A stretch of DNA of 64,000 bases, taken from an uncultured delta proteobacterium. GTDB taxonomy: Bacteria > Myxococcota > Myxococcia > Myxococcales > Anaeromyxobacteraceae. Both the position numbers and the translations under genes were made by a program. Under the pieces are notes generated by a model that was given only the letters and a program-made list of their open reading frames with translations, did not search any database and had not been told where the DNA came from. Of this stretch, positions 1-53,854 are shown piece by piece. Each line of letters begins with the position of its first letter. The first letter of the stretch is position 1. The DNA lies in the NCBI GenBank assembly GCA_963814585.1, contig CAWFDF010000014.1:224001-288000 (forward strand), read 5' to 3'.

Positions 1-698
1 TCGTGGCGGCCCTGGCCGGGCAGGTGAAGTTCGACGCCGTGGCCTCGGCCGGCGTCTTCGCCGTCCCGCACTTCGTGCTGCCCCGCTTCGACCTCGGGGC
101 CATCATCCTGCTCGCCCCCATCTCGCTGGTGGTGATCACCGAGCACATCGGCCACCTCATCGTCACCAACAACGTGGTGGGACGCGACCTGGTCAAGGAC
201 CCGGGCCTGCACCGCTCGCTGGCCGGCGACGGCGTGGCCACCATGTTCTCCGGCCTGCTGGGCGGCCCGCCCAACACCACCTACGGCGAGAACATCGGCG
301 TCATGGCGGTGACCCGGGTCTTCTCGGTCTGGGTCATCGGGGGCGCGGCCGTCATGGCCATCGCCATGTCCTTCCTCCCCAAGGTGGGCGCCCTCATCGG
401 CTCGATCCCGGTCCACGTCATGGGCGGCATCTGCATCCTGCTCTTCGGGATCATCGCCTCGGCCGGCGTCCGCATGATGGTCGAGGACAAGACCGACTTC
501 TCGCAGAAGCGGAACCTGATCATCGCCTCGGTCATCCTGGTGATCGGCATCGGCGGCGCCAAGATCCACATCGGCGGTACCGAGATCGGCGAGATGTCGC
601 TGGCCACCTACGTGGGCGTGCTGCTCAACCTGATCCTGCCCAGGCACGCCCCGGCCGACGGCACCGCGGTGGTGGCGGCGACGCAGCCGGACGCTTGA
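1..698 (+). CDS. uraA: Uracil/xanthine permease, NCS2 family (5' end outside the window)
   Basis: Hydrophobic protein with NCS2 signature region 'GGPPNTTYGENIGVMAVTRVFS' and 'EHIGH'; adjacent to a UPRTase-like gene. Confidence 0.88.
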   Translation, partial: VAALAGQVKFDAVASAGVFAVPHFVLPRFDLGAIILLAPISLVVITEHIGHLIVTNNVVGRDLVKDPGLHRSLAGDGVATMFSGLLGGPPNTTYGENIGVMAVTRVFSVWVIGGAAVMAIAMSFLPKVGALIGSIPVHVMGGICILLFGIIASAGVRMMVEDKTDFSQKRNLIIASVILVIGIGGAKIHIGGTEIGEMSLATYVGVLLNLILPRHAPADGTAVVAATQPDA

Positions 699-11936: not shown

Positions 11937-11975
11937 GCACATCTAACTGACTGATTACATTGTAGTTTTATGTGC
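11937..11975 (-). promoter_or_regulatory. AT-rich regulatory region: IHF-like site and imperfect inverted repeat
   Basis: Minus strand AATCAGTCAGTTA (11956-11944) matches WATCAR-N4-TTR with an upstream A-tract; arms GCACATCTAACT / AGTTTTATGTGC pair 10/12 with a 15-bp spacer. Confidence 0.5.
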
Positions 11976-22969: not shown

Positions 22970-24419
22970 CTACACCTTCTCGAGGATGGCCCTGAGCAGC
23001 TTCCAGAAATTGGCCACCGAGGGAACGGAGACGTGCTCGTCGGGCGTGTGGACGTCCCACATGCTCGGCCCGATCGAGGCCATCTCCACCGTCCCGTAGT
23101 TCTCGCGGATCAGGCCGCACTCCAGCCCGGCGTGGATGGCCTTGACCTCCATCGCCTTGCCGAACACCTCGGTGTGGACCTGCTGGATCAGCTTCACCAC
23201 GCCGGAGCCCGGCTCCGGCTTCCAGCCCGGGTAGCCGTTGGAGTCGCGCGCCTCGAAGCCGCAGATGGCGGCGATGGCGCCGATGCGGGCGGCCAGCGCG
23301 TACTTGGAGGCGTCGATCGAGCTCCGCGACAGGAAGTTCACCTCCACCTCGCCGGCCCGCGTCTCGACCAGCCCCATGTTGGTGGAGGTCTGGACCAGCC
23401 CCTTGATGTCGGGGCTCATGGCCTCGACGCCGTGCGGCCCGGCCAGCAGCAGCCCGACCACGGCGCGGGCGTCGGCGGCCGACATGGCCCACTCGCCGGT
23501 CCCCGGCTCCAGCCCGATGGCTCACGTTGGGGTCGAAGGCACCGAAGCCGGCCTTCCACTCGGCCTCCAGCCTCGCCACGTCGGCCTTCAGGCCCGCCTC
23601 GTCGCGCGGGTCGGCGAAGATCACGGCCGAGGCCTCGCGGGCGATGGCGTTGCGCTTGTTGCCGCCGGCCACCGAGGCGAGCCCGAGCGGGTAGCGGGCC
23701 ATGAGACGATCGAGCGCCTGGGCCAGGAGGCGCAGCGAGTTGCCCCGCCCGGCGGCGATGTCGATGCCGGAGTGGCCGCCCTTGAGCCCGGAGACCTTGA
23801 GTCGCAGCGCGACGGTGCCGGCGCGAGGCGCGGCCGGAGAGAGCCGGCGCGTGCAGGTGGTGTCGATGCCGCCGGCGCAGCCGATGGTCAGCTCCCCCTC
23901 CTCCTCGCTGTCGAGGTTGAGCATCATCGAGGCCTTGAGCCAGCCGCCGGCGAGCGCCTTGGCGCCCGTCATGCCGGTCTCCTCGTCGGTGGTGATGAGC
24001 ACCTCGAGCGGGCCGTGCTTCAGCTCCGGATCGGCCAGCACCGCCAGCGCCGAGGCCACGCCGATGCCGTTGTCGGCCCCCAGCGTGGTGCCGGTGGCGC
24101 GCAGCACGTCGCCGTCGCGGCGGACCTGGATGGGATCCTTGGCGAAGTCGTGGACCGTCCCCTCGTTCTTCTCGCAGACCATGTCGACGTGGGCCTGCAT
24201 GGCCACCACCGGCCGCCCCTCCCGTCCGGGCGAGGCCGCCTTGCGGACGAGGATGTTGCCGGCCCCGTCCTGCTCCACCTGGCAGCCGATGGCCCTGGCC
24301 TGCGCGACCACCCAGGCCGCGGCGGCCGCCTCCTGCTTGGAGGCGCGGGGAATCCTCGAGAGCTCGAGGAAGTAACGCCAGAGGGGCTTGGGCTCGAGGT
24401 CGGCGAGGAGATCGGTCAC
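22970..24419 (-). pseudogene. pepD: Aminoacyl-histidine dipeptidase (M20C), split by an apparent +1 frameshift near 23519; probably a sequence error
   Basis: 'QAHVDMV', 'TTLGADNGIG', 'TDEETGMTGA', 'NLDSEEEG' in one frame; 'IHAGLECG', 'VHTPDE' in another; one extra base restores the frame. Confidence 0.85.
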
Positions 24420-25984: not shown

Positions 25985-27394
25985 TCAGCGCCCCGCGGCC
26001 GAGGCCCGTGCCGCCCAGGCGTCGATCGCCGCCCCGAGCCGGGCCAGCCGCTGGCTGGCGCAGATCGAACGACTCCTCGCAGGGGTGGCGCGGCGCCGCG
26101 GCCCGCTCCGGGTCGACCCAGCGCGTCCCCGCGCTGGAGATCATGGCCACCACGTAACGCCGGGAGGGCTTGCCTGGCAGCGGCTCGACCAGCCCGGCGT
26201 CGGCGGCGAAGTTCCAGGTCAGGCCGGTCTTGTGGAGGAAGCGCACCTCGGCGGCGGCGTTGCAGGGGCGCACGTCGCGGCCGTAGTCGAGCTCCCCCAC
26301 CACCTCCTCGCCGGTCTCGACGTCGAGGAAGTGCGCCGGGACGGCCGCCGGGATCCCGGCCGCCCCGGCGCCGCACTTCGAGCCGGTGGAGAGGATCTCG
26401 TGGCGCGCCTGGTACGCCAGCACCCGCTTCAACCTGGCGCGGGCCGGCTCGGGCAGCGTCTCCCGCACCACCGCCCGGCCCGCCGGCGTCTGCCAGAGCA
26501 CCCCGGGACCGCCGGACACCAGCCAGAGCAGCCGCGCCATGTCCATGGCGGTGGCCTGGATCTCCCCGGGCGCCCAGCGCGAGCCGTCGGCCGGCAGCGT
26601 CCCGTCGATCCGGAGCGTGTGGAGGCCCAGCCCGGCCAGCTCCGCGTTCATCGGCTCCACCTCGCCGCGCACGTGCAGGAAGCGGAGCAGCGCCCGGGTG
26701 GCGCGGTTGTCCGACTCGGTGACCATCAGCTCCAGCCACTCGTCGACGGTGCGCCACTCCGCCCCCGGGGCCGTCCCCTCGGGCACCTCGGCCGAGAGCG
26801 CGATGGCGCCCTGCGCCGCCCGCCGCTCGACGTGGAAGGCGATCAGGAGCTTGAAGAGGCTGGCCGGATAGGGCGCCATGAAGTCGCGGCCCGCGGTCCC
26901 CCGCTCGGGCGCCAGGTCGTCGCCGGCCGTGAAGGGCGGTGCGCGTGGGCCCAGGTCCGCCCGCTCGGCGCTCCAGCGGCGGAACCGGACGTCGGTGGCG
27001 GCGAGGTTGGAGTCGAGCAGCACGACGCGGCCGCGCGGCGCGCTCCAGTCCACCTGCACGTTGGCCGCCTCGACGGCGCGCCCTCGCTCGTCGAGCCGGA
27101 TCACCGCCAGGTCGAGCCACGGTGGGAAGGCGGCACGCCGCAGCGGGATGGGGCAGCCTCGGCCGCCCGGACAGTGACCCTCCTCCGGACCGGCGTCCAC
27201 CAGGTCGTCGAGCCCCGCCTCGTCGAGCGTGAGCAGCAGCGCCTCGGCCAGCGAGGCCGGCTCGGTCCGGACCACCGCCCTGGCGGGCCGGGCGGCTTCC
27301 CCGGCGGCGGGGGCCTGGCCGGGGCCGGCGTGACGGGTGCGGCCAGCAGCAACGCGAGCGCGAGGCCGAGGCTGGCGCCCACGGGATCGCTCAT
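25985..27394 (-). CDS. Serine hydrolase, class A beta-lactamase/PBP fold (apparent frameshifts near 27320 and 26068)
   Basis: SxxK 'ASLFK', SDN 'ESDNRA', KTG 'HKTGL'; ATG 27394 overlaps the peroxidase stop (ATGA); better C terminus ICASQRLARLGAAIDAW in another frame. Confidence 0.75.
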
Positions 27395-27876
27395 CCCTTC
27401 AGCAGCTTCACGATGTCCGCCTCGAGCTTCTCGGGCGGGGTGGCCGGGGCGAACCGCTCCACCACCCGACCCTCCCGATCGAGGAGGAACTTGGTGAAGT
27501 TCCACTTGATGGCCTGGCCGAGCAGGCCCGGCGCCGATCGCTTGAGGAAGTCGAAGACCGGGTGCGCCCCGGCCCCGTTCACCTCGATCTTCCTGAAGAG
27601 CGGGAAGGTGACGCCGAAGTTCCGCTCGCAGAAGGCCGCGATCTCGGCGTCGCTGCCCGGCTCCTGGTGGCCGAACTGGTCGCAGGGGAAGCCGAGGATC
27701 TCCAGCCCCGCGGCCCGGTGGCGCTCATAGAGGGCCTGCAGCCCCTGGTACTGGGGCGTGAAGCCGCACTTGCTGGCGGTGTTGACCACCAGCAGCACCT
27801 TGCCCCGGTAGTCGGAGAGCGGCTGCTCCTTCCCGTCGTTCCGGGTGGCAGCCAGATCGTGGATGGTGTCGGACAT
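27391..27876 (-). CDS. Glutathione peroxidase family protein (Cys type)
   Basis: 'VVNTASKCGFTPQY', 'GFPCDQFGHQEPG', 'IKWNFTKFL'. Confidence 0.96.
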   Translation of the reverse strand: MSDTIHDLAATRNDGKEQPLSDYRGKVLLVVNTASKCGFTPQYQGLQALYERHRAAGLEILGFPCDQFGHQEPGSDAEIAAFCERNFGVTFPLFRKIEVNGAGAHPVFDFLKRSAPGLLGQAIKWNFTKFLLDREGRVVERFAPATPPEKLEADIVKLLKG

Positions 27877-27903
27877 GATGGATCTCCCTGGTTCGCCGCG
27901 TCC

Positions 27904-29272
27904 TCATAACCGACGGCCGGGCCCGGCGCCGCCCTGGATGCCCAGCGCCATCCCCTGCTTTCGCACCACCTCGCGGCGGAACAGCCCGTTGTATCCCCAG
28001 TAGAGGGCCATGCGAAGCGGCGTGCGCAGGTTGGTGCGCGGCTCGAGGAAGCGGCGCACCCGGGAGCCCAGGCCGTTGAAGCGGGACCGCGCCTCCCAGG
28101 CAGACCTCGGTCAGCTGCTGCGGCGTCATGCGGGCCGGCACGAAGGTGGCGTGGTTGAAGCGGAAGTCGGGGTGGAGCCACCAGCGGCCGCCGAAGAGGA
28201 GCCGCCCTTCCTCCGCCAGCCGCCGGTAGAGGGGCGTCCCGGGGTACGGGACGAGGGTGTTGAAGGCGGCGAAGGTGAACTTCTGCGCCAGGGCGAAGTC
28301 CACCAGCTCGCGCACCGAGTCCACCGTGTCCTCGTCGTGACCGATGGTGAAAGCAGCCCAGGTCTGCAGGCCGTGGTGGCGCAGCACCTCCACGGCCTCG
28401 CGGTAGCCGTGGCCGCCGGCGGCCAGGTTGACCGGCTTCCCCATGCCGCGCAGGGTCTGCGGGGCCAGGCTCTCGAAGCCGATGACGTGGCCCAGGCACC
28501 CGCTGCGGGCCATCAGGTCCATCAGCTCCTGGTCCTCGGTCATGTCGACGCTGCCCTGGCTCACCCAGCGCAGCTTGAGCGGGATGAGGGCGCGGAAGAG
28601 CTCCTTGGCGGCGGCCCGGTCGCCCACCACGTTGTCGTCGACGAAGAAGACCATCCTGGCGCGCGCCGCCTGGAGCTCGGCGACGACGTCGGCCACCGGC
28701 CTGGTGTGGACCCGCTGGTGGAAGTAGGCCCCCACCGCGCAGTAGGTGCAGCCGTGCGGACAGCCGCGGGCGAACTGCGCCAGCGTCACCGGCAGGTAGT
28801 CCTTGCCATGGAAGAGGTCGCGGCGCGGCAGCACGCCGCGCTGACCGGCCCCGGCGGGGAAGTCGTAGCGCGGGCGGAGCCGGCCGGCGGCCGCGTCGGC
28901 CACCACCTCGGCCCACCCCCCCTCGGCGTCGCCGGTGTACACCGCGTCGGCGTGCTCGGCCACCTCCTCCGGCGCCAGGGTGGCGTGGAAGCCCCCCATC
29001 ACCACCTTGACGCCGCGGCGCCGGTACTCCGCGGCGATCTGGTAGGCGCGCCGGGCGGTGAAGGTCTCCACCGTGAGGGCCGCCAGGTCGGTGGGCCGGC
29101 CGTAGGGGACCTGCTCCACGCGGTCGTCCACCAGCGCCACCTCCACGCCGGGTGGGGTCAGCGCCGCCAGCACGCCGAGCTGGAGCGGCTCCATGCGGCT
29201 CTCGTCGACGCCGACGCGGTCCGCGGGGTGGCCCAGGTCGGGGCGGATCAACGTGACGTGCATCGGTCTCAT
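27904..29272 (-). CDS. Cobalamin-binding radical SAM protein B (apparent +1 frameshift near 28099)
   Basis: CX3CX2C 'RGCPHGCTYC', N-terminal B12-binding-like domain ('VVMGGFHAT'), 'FFVDDN', 'PYPGTPL'; corrected C terminus 'FRREVVRKQGMALG' parallels protein A. Confidence 0.85.
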
Positions 29273-30573
29273 CCCCCCAGCGCCCGCCCCTGCTTGCGGC
29301 GGATCTCCCGGCGCGACACCAGGTTGGCCCCCAGGTAGAGGGCGGCGCTGGCCAGCGTCCGGGTGTTGGCCTGGCGATCCAGGGCGCGCCAGGCGATGGA
29401 GCGCCAGCCGGAGAAGCGGCGGCGAGCGCGGTAGATCCCCTCGGCCAGCTGAACCGGCGTCATGCGAGCCGGCACGAACTGGGCCGAGCCGTAACGGTAG
29501 GCCTCGTCGAGCCACCAGGGGTCGCCGAGCAGGCGTCCCTCGGCCTGGAGCCGCTGGTAGAGCGGGGTCCCCGGCGTGGGGGTGAGCGGGTTGAAGTTGG
29601 CCACGAAGAGCCGGTGCTCCAGCGCGAAGGCCAGGGCCGCCTCGATCGCCTCCGGCCCGTCGTGGTCGTAGCCGAACACGAAGGTGCCGTAGACCATGAT
29701 GCCGCGGGCCCGCAACCGGGCGATGCACTCCGCGTAGGAGGGGCCCAGCCGGTTCCAGGACTTGCGCATCTCCCGAAGGCTCTCCGGGTCGAGCGACTCG
29801 AAGCCGAGCAGGACCGTCCCGCAGCCGGCGGCGGCCAGCAGGTCGGCGCTGGACTCGTCGGCCAGGGCGTCGATGGAGATCTGCGCGCCCCAGCGCTTGC
29901 CGGCCGCGGGCAGCGCGGCGAGCAGCGCCAGCGCCGCCGCCGGGTCGGCGAAGAGGTTGTCGTCGACGAAGAAGGCGAACCGCCCCGGCAGCGCCGCCAC
30001 CTCGGCCACCGTCTCCTCCACCGGCCGGTGACGATAGGTGGTGCCGGAGAGGGCGTGGATGGAGCAGAAGTCGCAAGCGTGACGACAGCCTCGCCCGAAC
30101 TGGACCAGCGGCCAGCGCAGGTACCCCTTGCCCGCGAAGAGGGCCCGGTCGACCCGCACCCCCTGCAGCCCGGGCGGCGCCTCGGCCCGGTAGCGCTGCC
30201 GGAGCCTGCCGGCCGCGGCGTCGGCGACCACCTGCGGCCAGAGCGCCTCGGCGTCGCCGATCACCACCGCGTCGGCGTGGCCCGCCGCCTCGTCCGGCAC
30301 CAGGCTGGCGTGGTGGCCGCCCATCACCACCGGCAGGCCGCGCCGGCGGAAGGCGTCGGCCAGCTGGTAGGCGCGCCGGGCCGTGTAGGTCTGGACCGTG
30401 ATGCCGACCAGGTCGGCGTCCGGCGCCGCCGGCAGCGGCTCCACCCGCTCGTCGAGCAGCGTCACCCGGTGGCCGGCCGGGGTCAGCGCCGAGACGATCC
30501 CCAGCGCCAGCGGCGCCATGGCGTCGCCGGCGCGGACGGCCCCGGCATTGGGCTGGACCAGGGCGATCCTCAT
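29269..30573 (-). CDS. Cobalamin-binding radical SAM protein A
   Basis: 'RGCRHACDFC', 'VVMGGHHAS', 'FFVDDN', 'TPTPGTPL'; ATGA-coupled to both neighbours. Confidence 0.9.
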   Translation of the reverse strand: MRIALVQPNAGAVRAGDAMAPLALGIVSALTPAGHRVTLLDERVEPLPAAPDADLVGITVQTYTARRAYQLADAFRRRGLPVVMGGHHASLVPDEAAGHADAVVIGDAEALWPQVVADAAAGRLRQRYRAEAPPGLQGVRVDRALFAGKGYLRWPLVQFGRGCRHACDFCSIHALSGTTYRHRPVEETVAEVAALPGRFAFFVDDNLFADPAAALALLAALPAAGKRWGAQISIDALADESSADLLAAAGCGTVLLGFESLDPESLREMRKSWNRLGPSYAECIARLRARGIMVYGTFVFGYDHDGPEAIEAALAFALEHRLFVANFNPLTPTPGTPLYQRLQAEGRLLGDPWWLDEAYRYGSAQFVPARMTPVQLAEGIYRARRRFSGWRSIAWRALDRQANTRTLASAALYLGANLVSRREIRRKQGRALGG

Positions 30574-32765
30574 CGACTCGGCTCCGCACCCGCTGGGGCC
30601 CGCCCCAGCAGCGCCCCGAAGATCCAGACGTCGCCCACCACCGCCGCCAGGAGGCCTCCGGCCAGGAGGAGCCCCAGCTGCCGCGGCGGCACGAAGCTGG
30701 AGCCCAGGAAGACCAGGGCCCCCAGCGCCATCACCACCGCCACCAGGAGGGAGGCCCCGCCGCGTCGCTCGATCCCCTGGCTGGCCCCGCCGCCGGTGCA
30801 GGCGAACTGCACCGCGTTGTCACCGGTCAGCCCCACCAGCACGCTGGCGAAGGCCACGCTGAGGAAGTTGACGGGGAACCGCGCCACCCACATGGCCAGC
30901 AGCGTCACCGCCGGACCCCAGGCCGAGGCGAGTGCTGCCCGCACTCCCCAGCCCAGCCCCAGCCCCCGGTAGACCAGCACGATCACCAGCGCCACCAGCG
31001 CCAGGCAGGTGAGCAGGCTGTCCATCAAGGTCCTGGGCACGATGTCGCCGACGTCGGCATAGGTGATCAGCTCCCCGGCCGGGTAGCCGTCGCCGTCCGG
31101 CCAGCGGGTGGTGGCCCACCCGCGCAGGCGCAGCAGCGTGGGGAGCCCGACGTCGCCGACCAGCACGCTGGCCCGCAGCCGCCCGCCTGGCGCCTGCAGC
31201 GCACCGCTCCCGGCCGCCAGCTTGCCACGCTCCGCCGCCAGCTCGAAGAGCGCCAGGGCGTCTCCTCCGGTCAAGTCGGCCAGCACCGTGGCCGGATCGA
31301 GCACCTGGACCACCCCGGACTGCCGGCGAAGGTCGGCGACCGCCGCCGCCACCTCGGCCATGGAGGCGTCCTCGGGGAAGACCACGTAGAGCTGCCCGAT
31401 CCAGCCACGGGTCCGCGCCGAGTAGTCGAGCGCCTGGCGGAATGGGTGGCCGGCGTCGAACATGGCCACCGGGGTGTCGGCGTACTCCAGGTCGCCCGCG
31501 GCCAGCCCGCCGGCGACGAGGAGGAGCAGGAGCGCCCAGGCGGCCCGCCGCGGCATCCGCCGGGTGAGGAGGCGGGCCGGCAGCCGCGTCCCCAGGGCCT
31601 GCGCCGGCGCGGTCCAGGTGCGCAGCCGCGGCCACAGCTGCAGCAGCGCCGGCAGCACCAGGAAGGTGGCGGCCCACTCCAGGAGCGCCCCCAGCCCGCC
31701 CCACAGCCCGAAGCGGCGGACCACCGCCAGCTCCGAGACCCCCAGGCTGGCGAAGCCGATCACGGTGGTCAGCGACGTGAGGAAGCCAGGGAGGAGGAGC
31801 CGGCGGAACGCCCTTCGCCAGGAGGCCCCTCGAGCCAGCTGCTCCCAGGAGATGAAGACGAAGTCCTCCACCGCCGCCACCGAGAGCATGAGGAAGAGGC
31901 CGATCGAGAGCAGGTCGAGCGGCGCGCCGCTGGCCGCCATGCCGCCGTAGACGGCCGCCCCGGCCCAACCCACCACCAGCACCAGCAGCAGGCCGCCCCG
32001 CCAGGTGCCGAGGAGCACCCGCAGCGCCAGCAGCAGCAGCAGCGTCACCACGCCGTTGAGCACCTGGAACCGCTGCAGCCCGAGCTGGGCGAAGTGCTCG
32101 AAGGCGGCGTTCCCGGAGACCAGCAGCTGCACGCCGGGCTGGGCCTCGATCAGCTCGGCCCGGCAGCGCCGCTCCAGCGCGCCGATGGGGCGTGGGTCGA
32201 AGCGGCCGAAGCGCGAGCCGCCCGGTGTGTCGCGGAAGACCAGCTCCACCAGCACGTCGCGCCCCGCTCGGTCGGTGAGGATCCCGGCCCAGGGGCTGGC
32301 CGCCACGGCCCGCAACGCCTCCGGGGTGGCCGCCGGCATGATGGGGACGAGCCGCAGCCGGTCGTCGACCCGTGAGGGACGCAGCGCCTCGAAGGGCGAG
32401 GTGATCCGCACCAGCTCGCTGTTGCGGCCCCGCTCCAGCTCGATCCAGGCCCGGATGGCCTCCAGCTCGGCGGCGGTGAAGGACGCCGCCCTCGGCGTGA
32501 AGAAGAGCACCACGCCGTGGCCCGGGCCGAAGTCCCGCTCCATCTCCGCCTGCCAGCGGCTGGCGGGAAGATGGGCGTCGGCCATCTCCCGGATGGAGAG
32601 GTGGACCTGGGTGCGCGACGCCTGGGTGGCCAGCGCCACCAGCAGGCCGGCGGCCAGGGCCAGCGTGAGGCGAGGCCGATGCAGGGCCGCCCGGTGCAGC
32701 CGAAGCAGCGACCACGCCAGCGGGCGGAGCAGGCGGCGGCCGAGGATGGTGGCTCCGCTGCGCAC
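30570..32765 (-). CDS. MMPL/RND family transporter
   Basis: Two repeats of one TM + extracytoplasmic loop + TM bundle; 'VAAVEDFVFI', 'LTSLTTVIGFASL', 'GLTGDNAVQF'. Confidence 0.8.
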   Translation of the reverse strand: MRSGATILGRRLLRPLAWSLLRLHRAALHRPRLTLALAAGLLVALATQASRTQVHLSIREMADAHLPASRWQAEMERDFGPGHGVVLFFTPRAASFTAAELEAIRAWIELERGRNSELVRITSPFEALRPSRVDDRLRLVPIMPAATPEALRAVAASPWAGILTDRAGRDVLVELVFRDTPGGSRFGRFDPRPIGALERRCRAELIEAQPGVQLLVSGNAAFEHFAQLGLQRFQVLNGVVTLLLLLALRVLLGTWRGGLLLVLVVGWAGAAVYGGMAASGAPLDLLSIGLFLMLSVAAVEDFVFISWEQLARGASWRRAFRRLLLPGFLTSLTTVIGFASLGVSELAVVRRFGLWGGLGALLEWAATFLVLPALLQLWPRLRTWTAPAQALGTRLPARLLTRRMPRRAAWALLLLLVAGGLAAGDLEYADTPVAMFDAGHPFRQALDYSARTRGWIGQLYVVFPEDASMAEVAAAVADLRRQSGVVQVLDPATVLADLTGGDALALFELAAERGKLAAGSGALQAPGGRLRASVLVGDVGLPTLLRLRGWATTRWPDGDGYPAGELITYADVGDIVPRTLMDSLLTCLALVALVIVLVYRGLGLGWGVRAALASAWGPAVTLLAMWVARFPVNFLSVAFASVLVGLTGDNAVQFACTGGGASQGIERRGGASLLVAVVMALGALVFLGSSFVPPRQLGLLLAGGLLAAVVGDVWIFGALLGRAPAGAEPSR

Positions 32766-32774
32766 GCCTGCTCC

Positions 32775-33605
32775 TCACGCGCCGCGGCGCCGGGTCCCGG
32801 CCAGCGACCCCCGATCGGCCACGGACGCGGGAGCGCTGCCGGGGGCCGATCCAGTGGACCGGCCGGGTCGTCGCCTCGTCAGGAACGCCGCCACCGCGTG
32901 CCGGGCGAAGTCGCGCCAGCGGATCTCGGCGATGCAGGCCAGCTCCTGCCCGTCGCGCCAGCCGGGGTTGCGATCGAGGAAGAAGCGCACCCCCGGGTCG
33001 GCCAGCGCCTGCGCCGATGGCTCGGCCAGGCGGCCGCGCACCGCCCCGTGGCTCTCGCCGAAGTCGATGATGCCGCGGGCCGGGTCGAAGGCGCCGGGGT
33101 AGCGGGACGTGTAGTAGGCCTCCAGGACCCGCTGCAGGGACGGCGGCGTGGGGGCGTCGTGGCGCGGGAAGCCGCGCGGGAAGTGGTGGCTCAGGAGCAG
33201 GTAGGTCTTGAACCCCTTGCTGATGAGCATCCAGTACACGGGACCCAGCGGGTGGCGGAGCCGGGTGCGGAGCATGAGGAGGAAGAAGGCCCGCTGCAGC
33301 ACCCCCTTCCCCTGCCAGGACGCGTCCACCACGGTGTCACCGGAGAAGAGGCAGGTGGCTCCCGGGACCCCCGGCACCGGGCCGCGCCCGGCCGTGCTGA
33401 AGCCGACCAGCCGTCCCGGCCAGCGGCGTGGCCGGCCGGGCTCGGGCGCGAAGAAGAGCAGCGCGTGCGTCTTCTCCCGCAGGTCGGCGAGGAAGCGCTC
33501 GATCGTGACGTCGACGTAGGAGCGCTCGAAGAGGTCGAACATGCGCCGCGCGTCCAGCTCGTCGAGAGCCGGGACCGGCATCGTCCTGGAGACGACGTGG
33601 GGCAT
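32775..33605 (-). CDS. Hypothetical protein, putative GNAT-like fold
   Basis: 'LVGFS', 'FSGDTVVDASWQGKG' resembles GNAT motif A; GGAG RBS before ATG 33605. Confidence 0.6.
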   Translation of the reverse strand: MPHVVSRTMPVPALDELDARRMFDLFERSYVDVTIERFLADLREKTHALLFFAPEPGRPRRWPGRLVGFSTAGRGPVPGVPGATCLFSGDTVVDASWQGKGVLQRAFFLLMLRTRLRHPLGPVYWMLISKGFKTYLLLSHHFPRGFPRHDAPTPPSLQRVLEAYYTSRYPGAFDPARGIIDFGESHGAVRGRLAEPSAQALADPGVRFFLDRNPGWRDGQELACIAEIRWRDFARHAVAAFLTRRRPGRSTGSAPGSAPASVADRGSLAGTRRRGA

Positions 33606-33703
33606 CCTGCTCCCCCGCCAGGGCCTCACCGCTCTCTGGCGACCGGGGGCATGATAGCCCGACCCGGGCTGGAGGTGGGGCGGGGTCCGGGAAAGGGGAG
33701 CCG

Positions 33704-35278
33704 GTGCAGGGCCTGTTCGCTCGGATCGCCGTGGCCAGCCAGCGCCCGGCCTGGCGCCGCTTCCGGCGCGCCCTCGACGACGTCGAGGGCGCGCAGCGCC
33801 GCTGCCTGGCCCGGCTGCTCCCCTCGGCGCTGGCCTTGAACCCCGGCGCCGCGGCGCGCCTCGGACCTGGGGCCTCCTGGGAGGAGGTGGGACGAAGGCT
33901 TCCGCTCACCACCTGGGAGGACCACGCCGGCTGGATCGGGGCGCTCCGGGCGGCGCCCCCCGGCCCGGCCGGACCACTTCGCTTCGAGCCCACCAGCGGC
34001 TCCACCGCGGCCCGAAAGTGGATCCCCTGCCCGCCCACCTTCCTCGCCGAGCTCGACGAGGCCGCCTCGGCCTGGATGGCCGGCGCCGCCGATGACCACC
34101 CGGGGATCCTGGGTGGACCGCACTACTGGTCGCTCTCCTGGCTTCCCGACGACCTGCGCGCCGCGGGCCAGGGGAGCGATGATCTCGCCCTGCTCCCGCC
34201 GCTGGCCCGGCTGGTGCTGCGGCGGCTCATGGCGGTGCCCGGCGCCATCGCCCGCCTGCCCAGCTCCGAGGAGGCGCTGGCGGCCACCCTGGTCCACCTG
34301 GCGGCGCGCCCCGACCTGGCGCTGGCCTCGGTCTGGAGCCCGACCTTCCTGCTGCGGCTGGTCGAGGCGCTGGCGGCGCGGCGCGAGCAGGTCGCGGCGG
34401 TGCTGGCGTCCGGGCGCTGGGAGGCCGGCGGGCTCACCATCCCCTGGGCGGCGCCGCGTGCTCCCTCGGCGGCGCGACGGCTGCGCGAGGCGGGCCGCCA
34501 GCCCGGCCCATCCCTGACCCGGGCGCTCTGGCCGCGGCTGGCGCTGATCAGCGCCTGGGACTCGGCCTCCTCCCGCCCTTACGCCGCGGCGCTCCGCGCC
34601 CTCGTCCCCCACGCCGCCTTCCAGCCCAAGGGGCTGTGGGCCACCGAGGGGGTGGTCTCCATCCCCTTCGCCGGCGAGCACCCGCTCGCCCTCACCAGCC
34701 ACGCGCTGGAGTTCCGCTGCCTGGCCAGCGGCGCGGTGCTGCCGCCCTGGAGGCTGGAGGCCGGGCAGGAGGTGCAGCCGGTGGTGAGTGGCGCCCACGG
34801 GTTGCTCCGCTACCAGCTGCCGGACCGGCTGCGGGTGTCCGGCTTCCTGCATCGCGCCCCCTGCGTGGAGTTCCTCGGGCGGCTCGGCGGCGTCGACCTG
34901 GTGGGCGAGAAGGTGGACGCCGTCCTGGCCCAGCAGGTGCTGGAGCTCCTGGCTGCCGAGGGGCTGGCCCGCCCCATCGCGCTGCTGGCCGGGCCGGTGG
35001 GCCAGGGTCTCCCCTGCTACCGGCTGCTGGCAGCCCCCGGGGAGCGCGGCGCGGCGCCGGAGGCGGTGGCCGGGCGGGCCGAGGCCCTGCTGCTGCGCCT
35101 GCACCACTACCGGCTGGCGCGCGAGCTGGGCCAGCTCGGTCCGGCCCGGGCCGAGGTGCGAGCCGACGCGCTCGAGGAGTACCATCGCCTGGTGGGCCGC
35201 CCGGCCGGAGCCGACGGGCAGGTGAAGGTCGAGCCGGTGGTGGCGCTGCCGGCGGCGAGGGGGGACGCGTGCGGTTGA
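33704..35278 (+). CDS. GH3 family acyl-adenylating enzyme (acyl acid amido synthetase-like)
   Basis: 'FEPTSGSTAARKWIP' (GH3 motif I), 'KGLWATEG', 'GLLRYQLPD', 'FLGR...DLVGEKV'; AGGGGAG RBS. Confidence 0.8.
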   Translation: MQGLFARIAVASQRPAWRRFRRALDDVEGAQRRCLARLLPSALALNPGAAARLGPGASWEEVGRRLPLTTWEDHAGWIGALRAAPPGPAGPLRFEPTSGSTAARKWIPCPPTFLAELDEAASAWMAGAADDHPGILGGPHYWSLSWLPDDLRAAGQGSDDLALLPPLARLVLRRLMAVPGAIARLPSSEEALAATLVHLAARPDLALASVWSPTFLLRLVEALAARREQVAAVLASGRWEAGGLTIPWAAPRAPSAARRLREAGRQPGPSLTRALWPRLALISAWDSASSRPYAAALRALVPHAAFQPKGLWATEGVVSIPFAGEHPLALTSHALEFRCLASGAVLPPWRLEAGQEVQPVVSGAHGLLRYQLPDRLRVSGFLHRAPCVEFLGRLGGVDLVGEKVDAVLAQQVLELLAAEGLARPIALLAGPVGQGLPCYRLLAAPGERGAAPEAVAGRAEALLLRLHHYRLARELGQLGPARAEVRADALEEYHRLVGRPAGADGQVKVEPVVALPAARGDACG

Positions 35279-36639
35279 CCCTGATCCACCCCTGCATCGG
35301 CCGGATCCCGGGACGCCGCTACATCCGCAGCTGGCAGATGGAGCCGCTGCCGGCCGCTCACCTGGCCGGGCTGACGCCGCCGGACGTGGCGATCTCCTTC
35401 TGGGACGACCGGATGGAGGCCATCCCCTACGACGCGCCCACCGACCTGGTGGCCGTGAGCGTCGAGACCTACACGGCGCGGCGCGCCTACGAGATCGCCA
35501 GCGAGTACCGGCGGCGAGGGGTGCCGGTGGTGATGGGCGGCTTCCACGCCACGCTGCAGCCCGGGGAGGTGGCCAGCTACGCCGAGGCGGTGGTGGTCGG
35601 CGAGGCCGAGGAGACCTGGCCGCGGCTGCTCGAGGACGCCCGCGCCGGGCGGCTGCAGCGCGAGTACCGGGCCGGCGCGCGGCCGGACATCTCACGCACC
35701 CTGCCCGACCGCCGCCTCTTCCGCGGCAAGCGCTACCTGCCGGTGGCGCTGGTCGAGGCGGGGCGCGGCTGCACGTTCCGCTGCGAGTTCTGCGCCATCC
35801 AGAGCGCCTTCGGCGCCACCCAGACCCGGCGTGGCGTCGAGACCATCGTCCGCGAGATCGCCGACATGCCCGATCGACGGCGACTCTTCTTCTTCGTCGA
35901 CGACAACGTGGTGGCCCACCCGCGCGAGGCCAAGGAGCTGTTCCAGGCGCTCATCCCGCTGCGCATCCGCTGGGTGGGCCAGGCCACCGTCACCATGGCC
36001 CAGGACGAGGAGCTGCTCGACCTGATGCGGCGCAGCGGTTGCCAGGGCGTGCTCATCGGCCTGGAGAGCCTCGACGCCCGCAACCTGGCCGACATGAACA
36101 AGTCCTTCAACGCCGATCGGCTGCCGCCGGCCCAGGTGGTGCGCCGGCTGCACGCCCATGGGCTGCGGGTCTACGCCACCTTCGTCTTCGGCTACGACCA
36201 CGACACCGCCGAGAGCTTCGAGGAGGCGATCGACTTCGCGGTGGGCGAGCGGATCTTCATGGTGGCCTTCAACCACCTGACGCCGTTCCCGGGCACGCCG
36301 CTCCACGACCGGCTGGAGCGCGAGGGGCGGCTGATCTACCCGCGCTGGTGGCTCGACCCCCGCTACCGCTATGGCCAGGTCCCCTTCCACACCGCCGTGC
36401 CGCCGGAGGAGATCGACCGCCGCTGCGTGGCGCTGCGCAAGCGCTTCTACTCGCCCGGCTCCATCCTGCGCCGGATGGGCAACCTGACCAACGTGGCCAG
36501 CGGGAAGATGCTGCACCACTACCTCTTCATCAACCTGCTGCTCCGCCGCGAGGCGGCGGAGCGCGAGCAGTACCCGCTGGGCGATCGGTCCTTCCGGGGA
36601 TCGCTCCTCCCGGTGGCCGGCGCCCCGGCCCTGGACTGA
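35269..36639 (+). CDS. Cobalamin-binding radical SAM protein C
   Basis: GTG start overlapping the GH3 end; 'RGCTFRCEFC', 'VVMGGFHAT', 'FFVDDN', 'TPFPGTPL'. Confidence 0.9.
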   Translation: MRLTLIHPCIGRIPGRRYIRSWQMEPLPAAHLAGLTPPDVAISFWDDRMEAIPYDAPTDLVAVSVETYTARRAYEIASEYRRRGVPVVMGGFHATLQPGEVASYAEAVVVGEAEETWPRLLEDARAGRLQREYRAGARPDISRTLPDRRLFRGKRYLPVALVEAGRGCTFRCEFCAIQSAFGATQTRRGVETIVREIADMPDRRRLFFFVDDNVVAHPREAKELFQALIPLRIRWVGQATVTMAQDEELLDLMRRSGCQGVLIGLESLDARNLADMNKSFNADRLPPAQVVRRLHAHGLRVYATFVFGYDHDTAESFEEAIDFAVGERIFMVAFNHLTPFPGTPLHDRLEREGRLIYPRWWLDPRYRYGQVPFHTAVPPEEIDRRCVALRKRFYSPGSILRRMGNLTNVASGKMLHHYLFINLLLRREAAEREQYPLGDRSFRGSLLPVAGAPALD

Positions 36640-36643
36640 TCGG

Positions 36644-37759
36644 GTGGCCGGGGTCGAGCTCTACCTGGCGGGACCCGCCGACGACGCCGGCCTGCGGGCG
36701 CTGCTGCGGGAGCTCTCCAGCGGCGGCGCCCTGCGCCTGGCGCTCTGGCACGAGCCGGACTACTTCGCGGCCATCGAGGTGGAGGGGCGCGATCCGGTCG
36801 TCGTCACCGGGCGCGGGCCGGACGGCCGCATCGTCGTGGTGGGGGTCACCACGTGGAGGGACGTCTACGTCAACGGCGCGCCGGCCACCGTCGGCTACCT
36901 GAGCGGCCTCCGGTTCCACCCGCGGCACCGAGGCCGCGGGATCATCCAGCGCGGCTTCGCCCTGGCCCACGGCGAGCACGCCAGGCGGCCGGCCCTGCTC
37001 TTCCTCTCCACCATCATCGAGGGCAACGCCCCGGGCCGGCGCGCCCTGGGCGGGCGGCGCCCCGGCCTGCCCCACTTCGCGCCGCGCGGTACGTACCTCA
37101 CGTTCACCTACGCGCCGCGCGGCGATCCCTGGCGGGCCCGTGCCGCCCGGGGCGTGGAGGTGGCGGCGGCGGACGGCGCCGACCTGGAGCCGCTGGCCGC
37201 CCTGTGGCGGGCCGAGGGGCCGCGGCGGCAGTTCTTCCCCGTCTACCGGGCCGACGACCTGCGCCGGGCCGACGGCCTGCTGCGCGGCCTCGCCCCCCGA
37301 GACGTGCTGGTGGCCCGGGAGGGCGGTCGGGTCGTCGGCACGCTCGGGCTCTGGGACCAGCGGCCGTTCCGGCAGTGGGTGGTGGCCGGCTACTCGCGCC
37401 CCCTGGCCGTGTCGAGGCCCTTCTACAACGCCTTCGCCGCCGTCACCCGGCGGCCGCCGCTCCCGCCCCCTGGCGGGATCCTCGACCTGCGGCTCGGGGC
37501 GCTCCTCTGCACCGAACGGGACCGACCGGAGGTGCTGGCTTCCCTGCTCTCGGCCGCCTGGCGAGCCCTGCAGGCGAGGGCCCCGGGAGCGCTCCTCTCC
37601 ATCGGCGTGCACGAGCGCGACCCGCTGCGCCCACTGCTCGGCGCAGCGCCGCACCGGCTGCTGCGCAGCCGGCTCTACGTCCCCCACTGGCCGGAGGGGA
37701 CCGCGGCCCACGCCGCGCTCGACGATCGCTGCCCCTTCCTCGAGCTGGGCTCGCTCTGA
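36644..37759 (+). CDS. GNAT-like protein (probably tandem GNAT folds)
   Basis: 'GYLSGLRFHPRHRGRG' GNAT motif A; second half 'DVLVAREGGRVVGTLGLWD' looks like a second GNAT-type unit. Confidence 0.65.
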   Translation: MAGVELYLAGPADDAGLRALLRELSSGGALRLALWHEPDYFAAIEVEGRDPVVVTGRGPDGRIVVVGVTTWRDVYVNGAPATVGYLSGLRFHPRHRGRGIIQRGFALAHGEHARRPALLFLSTIIEGNAPGRRALGGRRPGLPHFAPRGTYLTFTYAPRGDPWRARAARGVEVAAADGADLEPLAALWRAEGPRRQFFPVYRADDLRRADGLLRGLAPRDVLVAREGGRVVGTLGLWDQRPFRQWVVAGYSRPLAVSRPFYNAFAAVTRRPPLPPPGGILDLRLGALLCTERDRPEVLASLLSAAWRALQARAPGALLSIGVHERDPLRPLLGAAPHRLLRSRLYVPHWPEGTAAHAALDDRCPFLELGSL

Positions 37760-37801
37760 CTTGACAATCGTTGCCCCTTCCTCGAGCTGGGCTCTCTCCG
37801 A
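37718..37801 (+). repeat. Tandem 42-bp duplication of a gene 3' end
   Basis: 37718-37759 versus 37760-37801: 37/42 identical. Confidence 0.9.
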
Positions 37802-37819
37802 GCCTGGCGGGCCGGCGCC

Positions 37820-39271
37820 CTACCCGCAGGACGCGCCGCGCCCGGCCGGCGCGTCCGCGCCGACGAGGTGGACCCCGGCCGGAAGCACCTCGCCTGGCTC
37901 GGGCAGCGCGGGCGCCTCCTGCCCGGCGCCCACCGCCGCCGTCGGCCCCCCATCGCCGAGGAACCAGTCGCAGGTGTAGAAGCGCTGCAGGTTGCGGGCG
38001 TAGAAACGGTAGCCGAGGTTGGCAGCCAGCGAGACCTGGGGGGCCACCCGGGCCCGCCAAAGGCGCGAGGCGATGGCCGAGAGCGAGTAGGTGTGCCTCC
38101 AGGCCCACTCGTGACCCCGCTGCAGCGCCTCCGGCGTCATGTGGCGCGGGCGGAAGACCACGTGCTGCGCGTCGTAGAGCTCCCAGTTCCGGTGGAGGAT
38201 GCGCCCCTCGGCGTCCAGCCGGCGGTGCAGCGGCGTCCCCGGGAACGGCGTCACGATGGCGAAGCGCGGCAGGTCGATGGCCGCATCGACGGCGAAGCGG
38301 GCGGTCCTCTCGAAGACGTCGGGGGTGTCGCCGTCGAGGCCGAAGGCGAAGCAGCCCATCAACGAGATGCCGTGGCGGTGCAGATCGGCCACCATGGCCT
38401 TGTAGCGCTCCGGATCGTTGAACCCCTTCCGGGTCTGCCCCAGCGAGGCCTCGCAGAGCGACTCCAGCCCCATCAGCAGCCCGGCGCAGCCGCTGCGCGC
38501 AGCCAGCTCGAGCAGCTCGCGCTCCAGGGCGATGAGCGTGGTGGCCAGGCCGTACCAGCGGACCTTCAGCGGGATCAGCCCCTCGAAGAGGCGGGCCGCA
38601 TAGCGCGGATCGGACACGAGGTTGAGGTCGACGAAGAGCACCCGGCGGGCCCCGACCTGCCGGATGTCGGCGATCACGTCCTCGACCGGCTTCTGGTACT
38701 GCTTCCGCCCCCAGGCCGCCGGGGCCACGCAGAACTCGCAGTCATGGGCGCAGGAGCGGGTGGCCTCGAAGACCGCGCTGGTCAGGTAGCGGCCAGGATC
38801 GAGCAGCTCGCGCCGCGCGAAGGGCAGCCCGGCCAGGGAGAGGTCGACCCCCTGGAGGTAACGCCGCCGCAGCCGCCCGGCGCGGAAGTCGCGCAGCAGC
38901 TCCGGCCAGGTCTGCTCGGCGTAGCCCACCACCACGGCGTCGGCGTGGCCGGCCGCCTCGTCGGGGAGGAGCGTCGGGTGCGGCCCGCCCAGCACCGTCG
39001 TGACGCCGCGGGCCCGCAGCCGGTCGGCCAGCTGGTAGGCGCGCGGGGCGTTGCCGGTGATCAGGGTGATGCCCACCAGGTCGGCCTCGAGGCGATCCGG
39101 ATCGACCTCGGCGATCCCCTCGTCGACGATCTCCACCGAGGCCCGCAGCTCGGCCGGGACGTAGGCGGCCAGGGTGGTCAGGGTCAGCGGCGCGTAGCGC
39201 AGCGATCGCGGGAAGATGCCGCCGCGGTGGCGGTAGAGCGGCCCCTTGGGCGAGATCAGCGCGATGCGCAC
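37820..39271 (-). CDS. Cobalamin-binding radical SAM protein D
   Basis: 'RSCAHDCEFC', 'VLGGPHPT', 'LFVDLN', 'TPFPGTPL'; GGAGGG RBS before GTG 39271. Confidence 0.9.
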   Translation of the reverse strand: MRIALISPKGPLYRHRGGIFPRSLRYAPLTLTTLAAYVPAELRASVEIVDEGIAEVDPDRLEADLVGITLITGNAPRAYQLADRLRARGVTTVLGGPHPTLLPDEAAGHADAVVVGYAEQTWPELLRDFRAGRLRRRYLQGVDLSLAGLPFARRELLDPGRYLTSAVFEATRSCAHDCEFCVAPAAWGRKQYQKPVEDVIADIRQVGARRVLFVDLNLVSDPRYAARLFEGLIPLKVRWYGLATTLIALERELLELAARSGCAGLLMGLESLCEASLGQTRKGFNDPERYKAMVADLHRHGISLMGCFAFGLDGDTPDVFERTARFAVDAAIDLPRFAIVTPFPGTPLHRRLDAEGRILHRNWELYDAQHVVFRPRHMTPEALQRGHEWAWRHTYSLSAIASRLWRARVAPQVSLAANLGYRFYARNLQRFYTCDWFLGDGGPTAAVGAGQEAPALPEPGEVLPAGVHLVGADAPAGRGASCG

Positions 39272-39419
39272 GGGCCCCTCCCTCCCGGACTCCACGCCCA
39301 GCATGGCACGGCCCGCGGCCGGGAGCGCCCCCTCGTCCGGGCTGCTCCCATCTGCCGCAGAGGCGGACGCCTGCGCCAGGCCCGTGGTGGTGGACCGGTC
39401 CGTCCGGGCCCTGGACGCC

Positions 39420-39872
39420 CTAGGTGTCCAGGCTCGCCAGCAGCACCTTGCGCATGCGGACGTGGGGGACGCCCTCCTCGAGGAAGGTCTCCCCCTCCTG
39501 CGTGTACCCGCGCCGCTCGAAGAACCTCACCGACGGGAGCTGGGCGTGCAGCACCACCTCGGCGATGCCGCGCAGCACCGCCATCCGCTCCAGGGCGTCC
39601 ATCACCAGCGCGCCGACGCCATGGCGACGGTGCTCGGCGGCGACCGCCATCCGGCCGATCTGGACCACGCGGTTGTCGCGCCGGACGAAGCGGCCCGTTC
39701 CGACGCAGCGCCCCTTCTCGTCGAAGGCCACCACGTGGTTGGCCTGGTGGTCGAGCGCGTCGCGGTCGAGGGGGCGCGGGACGTTCTGCTCGACCTCGAA
39801 GACCTGCTGCCGGAGGGCGTAGGCGGCCTCGCGATCGGCCTCGGTGGATGCGTAGCGGACGGAGTAGGTCAT
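39420..39872 (-). CDS. GNAT N-acetyltransferase (ElaA/YjcF-like)
   Basis: 'LRQQVFEVEQNV', 'IGRMAV...HRRHGVG', 'LHAQ', 'FLEEGVPHVRM'. Confidence 0.9.
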   Translation of the reverse strand: MTYSVRYASTEADREAAYALRQQVFEVEQNVPRPLDRDALDHQANHVVAFDEKGRCVGTGRFVRRDNRVVQIGRMAVAAEHRRHGVGALVMDALERMAVLRGIAEVVLHAQLPSVRFFERRGYTQEGETFLEEGVPHVRMRKVLLASLDT

Positions 39873-39981: not shown

Positions 39982-42288
<2,307 letters not shown>

Positions 42289-44627: not shown

Positions 44628-44628
44628 G

Positions 44629-45801: not shown

Positions 45802-46477
45802 GGTGGAGGCTCTCCAGCAGCTTGAGGAAGGCGGGGCGGGCGGCGGCGACCGGCTCGGCGTCACCGGTCAGCTTGAAGAACCAGGAGCTGCCGTCGACCA
45901 TGAGGATGGCGGCGATGAGGCGGCTCTTCCTGGTCCCCTCGCTGGTGAAGTCGTAGACGTTGGCCGGGCCGACCCTCGTCCTGAGCGAGGTGCGGGCCGC
46001 GGCGAGCCCGGCCGCGTCGGTGGGGCCGAGGCCAATCTGGCCGCGCCACCGGTTCACGTTGGCCAGCTCGCCGCCGGCGTCTCCGGGCAGCGTCACCACC
46101 GAGCCGTCGATGGTCCCGGCGCCCGGGACCTTGAAGGTGGCGAAGCGCATGCCGCCCGGGAAGCTCTGGCCCCAGCCACCCGGCAGCGACCACTTGAGCG
46201 CGTCGGCGCCGCTCGGCGTCGGTGGCATGGGGACGTCCCCGGCCATGCCGGGGGGAGGGGCCTGGGGCGGTGCCGGACGGTGGGACGTGCCAACCGGGTC
46301 ACCGCCGGCGGCCTGGGCGGCCGGCGGAACGGCCTTGGCGACGCGGTAGCTGGTCACCTCGTCGCGCCGGCAGCCGCCCACGACGAGGAGCATGGCGCCG
46401 GCCACCAGCCAGGCACCCCGCCCGGGCGAGCGGGGTGCGTCGAGCCGAGGCTGGAAGGCGTGGTCATCCGGGTGCAT
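45794..46477 (-). CDS. Hypothetical lipoprotein leading the ccs operon
   Basis: AGGAG RBS, lipobox-like 'VGGC', 'WSLPGGW...MRFATF', 'GGELANVNRWRGQIGL', 'WFFKLTG'; stop overlaps the resB start. Confidence 0.75.
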   Translation of the reverse strand: MHPDDHAFQPRLDAPRSPGRGAWLVAGAMLLVVGGCRRDEVTSYRVAKAVPPAAQAAGGDPVGTSHRPAPPQAPPPGMAGDVPMPPTPSGADALKWSLPGGWGQSFPGGMRFATFKVPGAGTIDGSVVTLPGDAGGELANVNRWRGQIGLGPTDAAGLAAARTSLRTRVGPANVYDFTSEGTRKSRLIAAILMVDGSSWFFKLTGDAEPVAAARPAFLKLLESLHRD

Positions 46478-53759: not shown

Positions 53760-53854
53760 CCTCGCCCCTCCGCGGAATGGCGGCATGCTATCCCAATCCG
53801 CTCCCCAGCACGCCTTTCCGGCCGCCCCCGGTCGCCGCCAGGTGGGAGCCTCCC

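Follow-up and report, generated by a model that had tools for sequence, protein, structure and literature searches.

We analysed an eight-gene block in a 64,000-nucleotide stretch of an uncultured delta proteobacterium of the Anaeromyxobacteraceae (GenBank assembly GCA_963814585.1, contig CAWFDF010000014.1, positions 224,001 to 288,000, forward strand), hereafter called the window, in whose numbering positions are given. The block encodes a GH3-family ligase, two GNAT-fold proteins (GNAT1 and GNAT2), four radical S-adenosylmethionine (SAM) enzymes with cobalamin-type N-terminal domains (rSAM A to D) and an MMPL transporter. The block is real and discrete, and the system to which it belongs is widespread; it probably represents a variant form of the biosynthesis of amino lipids or N-acyl amides, and its product is more likely than not an amide-linked lipid. 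Judged from gene neighborhoods, the system is layered: a GNAT1-GH3-GNAT2 core occurs mostly without rSAM genes, rSAM D and C are a fixed add-on to it, and rSAM A and B are a second add-on.

An eight-gene block with defined edges

All eight genes, their positions and their two divergent units were verified as given in a preliminary description that had been made from the sequence alone (Table 1). They form a discrete block of ~11.5 kb (about 27877-39419), and within each divergent unit neighboring genes overlap or are separated by no more than 9 bp. The flanks are a glutathione-peroxidase gene (27391-27876) and a small GNAT gene (39420-39872). Both flanking genes are present in 5/5 cluster-less congeners tested, and in 4/5 they adjoin, 13-113 bp apart, which sets the edges of the block where they had been proposed. 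For the same reason, the two flanking genes were rejected as members of the cluster. The same three of 12 other genomes of the genus carry GH3, MMPL and GNAT2, and the eight genes have been gained or lost together as one block. The GC content of the block (0.75) compared with that of the genome (0.73) indicates that it is not a recent import; the nearest named relatives are one Anaeromyxobacter metagenome-assembled genome (MAG) and one Myxococcales MAG. In one cluster-less congener (G002), the empty site (L221, compared with window 27388-27930) retains a match to the final 27 bases of rSAM B, a hint that the block was lost there rather than never present.

Table 1. Features of the eight-gene block in window coordinates.
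Feature	Position	Strand	Description	Evidence
rSAM B	27904..29272	-	Cobalamin-domain radical SAM enzyme of the A+B pair; frame-shifting extra base at ~28099	Pfam; own clade (SH-aLRT 99); intact in relative L015
rSAM A	29269..30573	-	Cobalamin-domain radical SAM enzyme of the A+B pair	Pfam; own clade (SH-aLRT 92); own Citrobacter plasmid orthologue (52%)
MMPL	30570..32765	-	MMPL/HAE3-type RND transporter; likely product exporter; family-specific accessory	Pfam MMPL at cut-off; 9 hydrophobic segments
GNAT1	32775..33605	-	Single GNAT-fold acyltransferase; core gene; family without Pfam model	Structure model and structure search
Divergent intergenic region	33606..33703	.	98 bp; presumed two-way promoter	Sequence
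GH3	33704..35278	+	GH3-family ATP-dependent acid-amine ligase (predicted); core gene	Pfam; motifs
rSAM C	35269..36639	+	Radical SAM enzyme with cobalamin domain and a DUF4070 tail; fixed partner of rSAM D	Pfam; clade support 99
GNAT2	36644..37759	+	Tandem GNAT with NMT/Eis-like fold and fixed C-terminus; core gene	Structure model
Tandem duplication	37718..37801	+	42-nt duplication of the GNAT2 3' end, 88% alike	Sequence
rSAM D	37820..39271	-	Cobalamin-domain radical SAM enzyme of D/E type; differing cobalamin-pocket motif	Pfam; clade support 99

The reading frame of rSAM B shifts near 28099 through one extra base, which is probably an assembly error. The orthologue in a relative (L015) is 87% identical with its frame intact, and contigs from two short-read runs of a single freshwater-sediment study (X3 and X4, about 99% alike) have one base fewer at this position, which disfavors a true pseudogene; among the four runs tried, X1 yielded nothing and X5 lacked coverage of 28099. 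In the divergent region between GNAT1 and GH3, the sigma-70 consensus was unmatched, and the promoter/terminator scan returned one chance-level terminator. This divergent layout occurs in 7/134 adjacent GNAT1-GH3 pairs. An Rfam scan of the window gave zero matches. The 42-nt duplication at the end of GNAT2 is likely the scar of an insertion or excision, and the gap between GNAT2 and rSAM D appears to be an insertion hot spot; in relatives, it holds unrelated small modules, toxin-antitoxin-like or HNH genes (L015:14090-14700, L009:6485-9396; labels partly by eye).

A widespread GNAT1-GH3-GNAT2 core

To survey GH3 neighborhoods, we took the best 80 of 274 GH3 loci in a species-genome collection and typed neighbors with profiles built from our own loci; these miss distant members (Pfam found desaturases in L074 that the profile had missed), so the counts are lower bounds. 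GNAT1 and GNAT2 both stand beside GH3 in 50/52 well-flanked loci (5 kb on each side) and in 71/80 overall, and GNAT1 adjoins GH3 in 134/140 loci that hold both. A cluster-type rSAM is found in only 7/80. Co-conservation, which the preliminary description had proposed as a check, is strong, but the conserved unit is GNAT1-GH3-GNAT2; the four rSAMs form two optional pairs. Carriers of the core span Gamma- and Betaproteobacteria, Bdellovibrionota, Nitrospirota, Acidobacteriota and Myxococcota, and include Thalassolituus, Oleispira, Alcanivorax, Moritella, Pseudomonas, Aquabacterium, Bdellovibrio and Nitrospirae; GNAT2 is present in 121/401 sampled genomes of the window's own phylum. The three core proteins have correlated tree distances (rho 0.81-0.89, 114 loci), which is a sign of shared inheritance and not of co-evolution.

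The GH3 protein is a predicted ATP-dependent acid-amine ligase. It exceeds the Pfam cut-offs of PF03321 (54 bits vs 23.6) and GH3_M (39.9 vs 23.6), its matches in the PDB are plant GH3 enzymes, and three nucleotide-binding motifs, compared with reference motifs from the accessible part of PMC12493201, are conserved among 36 sequences (T97-S-G-S-T..K105, W312-A-T-E315 and G366..R-Y..D374), as is K508.

GNAT1 (276 aa) has zero Pfam matches, and its assignment comes from an AlphaFold model (pLDDT 91.6) in which structure search identifies a single GNAT fold. It has no close structural match; the best is NatD (Z 13.0, root-mean-square deviation (rmsd) 2.6, 154 residues aligned), above LasI (Z 11.8) and FeeM (Z 10.7). 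NodA scored 0.82 for GNAT1 in Atlas, a lead only. The family is large, with 857 clusters at 50% identity (E up to 1e-30). GNAT2 (371 aa) has a weak Acetyltransf_1 match in Pfam, and its model (pLDDT 94.2) is a tandem GNAT over the full chain that matches MAB_4324 (Z 22.1) and yeast NMT (2p6e; Z 21.2, rmsd 3.5, 300 aligned, residues 1..371 on 76..455). Other tandem GNATs tie with NMT, namely 7q3a (22.1), 4zm6 (21.2) and 8fbt (21.1). Sequence searches of the PDB gave nothing significant for either protein, with no GNAT2 match under E 0.04. In both NMT and Eis, the C-terminal carboxylate serves as the catalytic base. The last residue of GNAT2 aligns with the last residue of yeast NMT and of Eis, and 59/60 GNAT2 homologues end in one alignment column. 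The likeness to the tandem GNATs NMT and Eis (2p6e, 3sxn, 9mva) extends over the whole length of the fold, although identity is only 11-17%.

The best evidence that the core acts on a lipid, and that the MMPL transporter belongs with it, comes from GNAT1 fusions. Among 15 long forms (14 out of the best 150 family matches, plus P0167), GNAT1 is joined to MMPL (P0239, P0307), a desaturase (P0234), PAP2 and a desaturase (P0197) and GH3 (P0167). Five of the 15 have no Pfam partner; in the others, one each, GNAT1 is combined with Lnb_N, RnfD/ASPIC, an MFS transporter, a cupin and a gyrase fragment, the last of these being probably chimeric. The lipid link of the preliminary description is borne out by the desaturase, PAP2 and MMPL fusions, by the frequency of desaturase and PAP2 genes at rSAM D loci (below) and by the precedent of a bacterial GH3 that makes an amino lipid (below). 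As a separate observation, a fusion of an RnfD-like membrane domain with an ASPIC/UnbV propeller recurs beside rSAM-free cores (L023, L178, L190, L191), where a Rieske oxygenase is often present too; in two cases it is joined to GNAT1 (P0166, P0206).

The folds also bear on the idea that the target of acylation and methylation is a macromolecule, such as a protein or lipoprotein, which we regard as improbable. The nearest folds are NatD/NatC for GNAT1 and NMT for GNAT2, PDB entry 9ccb, which we take to be a protein glutamine methyltransferase, is among the top rSAM matches, and one GNAT1-Lnb_N fusion exists; however, no neighborhood family contains a conserved substrate or precursor gene, GH3 works on small acids, and a macromolecular substrate would leave the exporters, desaturases and PAP2 proteins unexplained.

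Two optional pairs of cobalamin radical SAM enzymes

Pfam annotation confirmed the domains read from the sequence: Radical_SAM above cut-off in all four rSAMs, B12-binding (PF02310) above cut-off in A, C and D with rSAM B just under (26.2 vs 32.1), GH3, MMPL and a weak Acetyltransf_1, with GNAT1 recognized by its modelled fold. As previously noted, none of the eight proteins contains a ketosynthase, acyl carrier protein (ACP), nonribosomal peptide synthetase or cyclase domain in Pfam. The CX3CX2C motif is present in all four rSAMs and in all members of their clades, which had been selected for that motif. The four rSAMs are mutually 38-48% alike and fall into four clades with Shimodaira-Hasegawa-like (SH-aLRT) supports of 92 for A and 99 for each of the others, in a quick tree search with 42 rows subsampled from 177. 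Each is closest to its own counterpart in a cluster on a Citrobacter plasmid, which bears the full set, and the four roles have thus been long maintained.

For rSAM D, we surveyed the best 80 of 213 loci in metagenomes, of which 26 are well-flanked (2.3 kb or more upstream, 5.5 kb or more downstream). GH3, GNAT1, GNAT2 and rSAM C occur in 26/26 of these, alongside desaturase (22), NTF2-like (20), PAP2 (18), A+B (18) and a 225-aa membrane protein (17), with an AurF-like protein in 10 and a Rieske oxygenase in 3. In most D loci, rSAM D and C lie between GH3 and GNAT2 inside the operon, and the D+C pair is found in both main GH3 lineages. By a strict cut, rSAM D is present in 7/401 genomes of the phylum, a count that misses two genomes with a split D gene. 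In three relatives, a fifth rSAM, of E type, is divergent from rSAM D (L009:12112-14083, L016:15674-17652, L015:16237-17538; compare window 39272-39419), followed in two of them by a 227-aa membrane protein that elsewhere accompanies A+B in 20/21 loci; both genes are absent from the window genome.

The pattern of rSAM A+B raises a weak lead, namely that this pair may stand in for a Rieske oxygenase. The two co-occur in 0/17 well-flanked A+B loci, vs a Rieske oxygenase in 4/21 D/E+C loci without A+B, plus two short loci (Fisher p 0.03 for a comparable table whose related loci are not independent); on the GH3 tree, the exchange appears as two separate events. The idea that the B12 enzymes replace desaturases in anaerobes was rejected, since a desaturase is present in 22/26 D loci and in 12/17 well-flanked A+B loci. 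The window block itself is without desaturase, Rieske, AurF-like, NTF2-like and PAP2 genes, and profile matches across its genome consist of one PAP2-like gene elsewhere; an unrelated desaturase lies on another contig. The window version of the cluster may therefore be a reduced one.

Motif comparison separates the four enzymes in a different way. With motif definitions and the TokK motif S-x-Y-x-W taken from the accessible part of PMC9204698, the GG motif of the cobalamin domain is invariant, and rSAM C, A and B have a downstream motif S/T-x-E-x-Y/F (Glu in 58/58, 18/20 and 19/19, respectively, and an aromatic residue in all) together with GE/GD, whereas rSAM D has T-x-I-x-G plus GY in 63-65 of 65. 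These differing cobalamin pockets suggest two chemistries. The base-off, His-off motifs (downstream, GG, GE/GD) and the occurrence of several paralogous B12 enzymes per pathway recall TokK/ThnK and OxsB (PMC9204698, PMC13331322, accessible parts). Where OxsB has Asn186 and TsrM has Arg69 (same sources), rSAM C, A and B have a near-invariant Glu, while D is marked by Ile, Gly and GY; sequence likeness to TokK, ThnK and OxsB is confined to the radical SAM core. No named NCBIfam model of B12 radical SAM enzymes (BchE, HpnJ, HpnR, PhpK, TIGR04072, AprD4, MgmA) comes near its cut-off, the best being PhpK with 87.7 bits against 600. Membership in the ladderane, BchE or PhpK families was accordingly rejected (TIGR04072 at most 74.6 vs 360). 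The genome has a MetH over cut-off and thus uses cobalamin; CobS was not found in it, so that the cofactor is probably scavenged.

HpnN is an MMPL-type transporter of the hopanoid pathway, and a locus for hopanoid-type methylation and transport (HpnP plus HpnN) would also combine B12-binding, radical SAM and DUF4070 domains with an exporter, here one weakly like HpnN. This explanation is largely refuted, and we give it next to no weight. The squalene-hopene cyclase C-terminal domain (PF13243) was not found in the 91.7% complete genome, and curated models score far below cut-off: HpnN (TIGR03480) 24.7 vs 751.85, HpnJ at most 80 vs 577.6 and HpnR at most 50 vs 650. Only rSAM C exceeds the DUF4070 cut-off (24 vs 22); A and D give weak matches and the frameshifted B none, and the triple of domains also captures proteins other than HpnP. 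The DUF4070 tail would group the window enzymes with the HpnP-like proteins, and the likeness to HpnP and HpnP-like proteins would be one of layout, of a predicted lipid substrate and of an MMPL-type transporter in the same pathway (PMC10697835; bioRxiv 10.1101/2025.07.29.667474; accessible parts). According to the accessible part of PMC10697835, HpnP-like clades are uncharacterized, and their myxobacterial homologues occur without the cyclase.

Exporters beside the core

The MMPL transporter, which the preliminary description had counted as part of the system, is indeed present, and its kin are fused to GNAT1 elsewhere; it is nevertheless an accessory at the level of the family. Its Pfam score is borderline (20.7 vs 20.5), with 9 hydrophobic segments in a crude scan, and it occurs in 9/401 genomes of the phylum, seven of them strong matches that are all in its own family. 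It is found in 3/80 GH3-anchored loci and in 0/26 well-flanked D loci, and was rejected as a member of the conserved core. Separately, in another genome (G220; L207:7516-11055), a transporter of the same MMPL clade (60%) lies right behind a lone D/E-like rSAM, with the core cluster on a different contig.

In other lineages, the exporters beside the core are of RND, ABC or EmrAB-TolC type. RND with a membrane fusion protein (MFP) occurs in 29/80 GH3 loci, ABC with HlyD in Aquabacterium and EmrAB in Pseudomonas. In Acinetobacter baumannii, the order is EmrA-EmrB-GNAT1-GH3-TolC-GNAT2 (L094:6320-13996), shared with close species, in clusters of 2,200-3,500 members. By gene numbering, not sequence, the EmrAB-type pump directly upstream of this core corresponds to AmfAB (A1S_1772/1773; PMC10812440, accessible part), and the naming of A1S_1769 as a TolC-like gene (PMC11784087, accessible part) fits the MFP-MFS-GNAT1-GH3-TolC order that we observe. 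The pump beside the Acinetobacter core is probably AmfAB, and the TolC-like gene may supply the outer channel thought to be missing in the AmfAB paper (PMC10812440, accessible part). The Acinetobacter locus differs from the window block in having no rSAM genes. The main texts of the two papers, so far as accessible, do not mention the GH3 and GNAT genes, and none of the Acinetobacter papers listed in the literature search names A1S_1770, 1771 or 1768 in its main text; Acinetobacter transcriptome or transposon-sequencing tables may hold data on them.

These exporters, in particular the tripartite ones and the Acinetobacter arrangement, together with the patchy occurrence of the cluster (3/12 congeners), are what would be expected if the product were a secreted small N-acyl amide (a signal, surfactant or antibiotic) rather than a resident membrane lipid, with the enzymology unchanged. 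We consider a secreted product unlikely, although it is the strongest of the alternatives: the PAP2, desaturase and MMPL partners and fusions indicate membrane-bound intermediates, and loss of AmfAB, probably the pump in question, alters acid survival and envelope permeability and not drug efflux (PMC10812440, accessible part).

The pumps adjacent to the core, the induction of amfA by bile salts (same source) and the many carriers in Thalassolituus, Oleispira and Alcanivorax, presumably hydrocarbon degraders, could likewise be read as conjugate-and-export detoxification, in which GH3 and the GNATs would render fatty or aromatic acids harmless by conjugation, much as auxin is masked by the GH3s of plants, and the rSAMs would have a purpose apart from this. 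This is slightly less probable again than a macromolecular substrate, given the position of rSAM D and C inside the operon in most D loci and their presence in both main GH3 lineages; moreover, four conserved rSAM paralogues imply dedicated steps.

Proposed pathway and comparison with OlsH

From the gene content, boundaries, co-conservation, folds, motifs and fusions observed above, we infer the following route to an amide-linked lipid. GNAT1 would acylate an amino acid with a fatty acyl chain taken from acyl-ACP or acyl-CoA of the host; GH3 would adenylate a free carboxylate, either of that N-acyl amino acid or, as in OlsH, of a free fatty acid, and couple a second amine; and GNAT2, which is NMT/Eis-like, would acylate the remaining primary amine from acyl-CoA to give a two-tailed amide lipid. 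The order of these three steps is a guess that may well be wrong. GNAT-fold enzymes normally use CoA- or ACP-bound acyl groups, and the carrier-independent pathway proposed in the preliminary description is therefore tenable for the GH3 step only. Radical tailoring by cobalamin enzymes without oxygen, followed by MMPL export, is likely: rSAM C, A and B, with a TokK-like pocket and an aromatic residue at the place of Trp76, would most likely C-methylate the lipid, rSAM D, with its different pocket, would catalyze another radical step, A+B may substitute for the Rieske oxygenase of sister clusters, and the MMPL transporter would carry the product out of the inner membrane.

A number of observations weigh against this proposal. 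Most core loci are without rSAM, and many stand beside tripartite pumps, which fits a secreted molecule equally well. Several myxobacteria with large genomes (L179, L181, L182, L194-L196) have GNAT2 away from GH3, 3/45 D loci with room downstream are without rSAM C and GNAT2, and four genes that are usual in A+B clusters (desaturase, PAP2, NTF2-like and the 225-aa membrane protein) are missing from the window block. The best folds for GNAT1 are protein N-terminal acetyltransferases and not lipid enzymes, with LasI and FeeM not outstanding among its matches. As to the radical enzymes, the alignment to TokK in the cobalamin domain is below significance, changes at TokK Trp76 had little effect (PMC9204698, accessible part), and the best PDB sequence match for rSAM C and D is AprD4, which binds no cobalamin (PMC12931638).

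The closest described system is the OlsH/OlsI/OlsG pathway of Singulisphaera acidiphila, in which OlsH, a bacterial GH3, uses ATP to turn a free fatty acid into N-acyl ornithine (PMC12493201, accessible part, here and for the OlsH comparisons that follow). Both have a GH3 of ~525 aa with three nucleotide-binding motifs; further common features, predicted in the case of the window cluster, are amide formation that depends on ATP but on neither ACP nor CoA, and an amino-lipid product. Unlike the OlsH operon, the window cluster lacks the alpha/beta-hydrolase OlsI and the N-methyltransferase OlsG, with no hydrolase or SAM N-methyltransferase domain found by Pfam among the eight proteins, and instead has two GNATs, four B12 rSAMs and an MMPL transporter. 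The OlsH homologues are ~90% from Bacteroidota, whereas the window GH3 subfamily is mostly from Proteobacteria and Myxococcota. The literature search, which covered main texts and not supplements or subscription papers, returned no description of this gene set or its product, in keeping with the earlier statement that no characterized pathway of such a composition was known.

Other features of the window

Elsewhere in the window, an M20 peptidase gene (22970-24419, - strand) is split over two frames, probably by another assembly frameshift. The window also contains two large MtrC-like multihaem cytochromes (8122-11940 and 51291-53786, both - strand), a ResB-like and cytochrome c assembly pair (42891-45864), a glutaminyl-tRNA synthetase with a C-terminal GatB/Yqey domain (39982-42288, + strand) and an Imm8 immunity-protein gene (59596-60114, - strand).

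Significance

The core is common and extends to bacteria that are easy to culture, but the papers searched describe no product of it. If the proposed pathway is correct, it would add a further route to amino lipids and give a task to uncharacterized HpnP-like B12 enzymes, and the layered build (core, plus D/C, plus A/B or Rieske oxygenase) offers natural comparisons for the role of each radical enzyme. Methylated amide lipids of anoxic sediments could serve as biomarkers. A broader and quite tentative reading is that GH3, an NMT-like enzyme and a new GNAT family make an unrecognized class of amide lipids that is widespread among bacteria, with producers as different as Acinetobacter, marine oil degraders and myxobacteria. 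Paired cobalamin radical enzymes would perform new chemistry on these lipids: D and C would act together in one fixed step, and A+B would take the place of the Rieske oxygenase without using oxygen (hydroxylation, desaturation or ring closure). If that were true, the window would hold the fully oxygen-independent, MMPL-delivered form.

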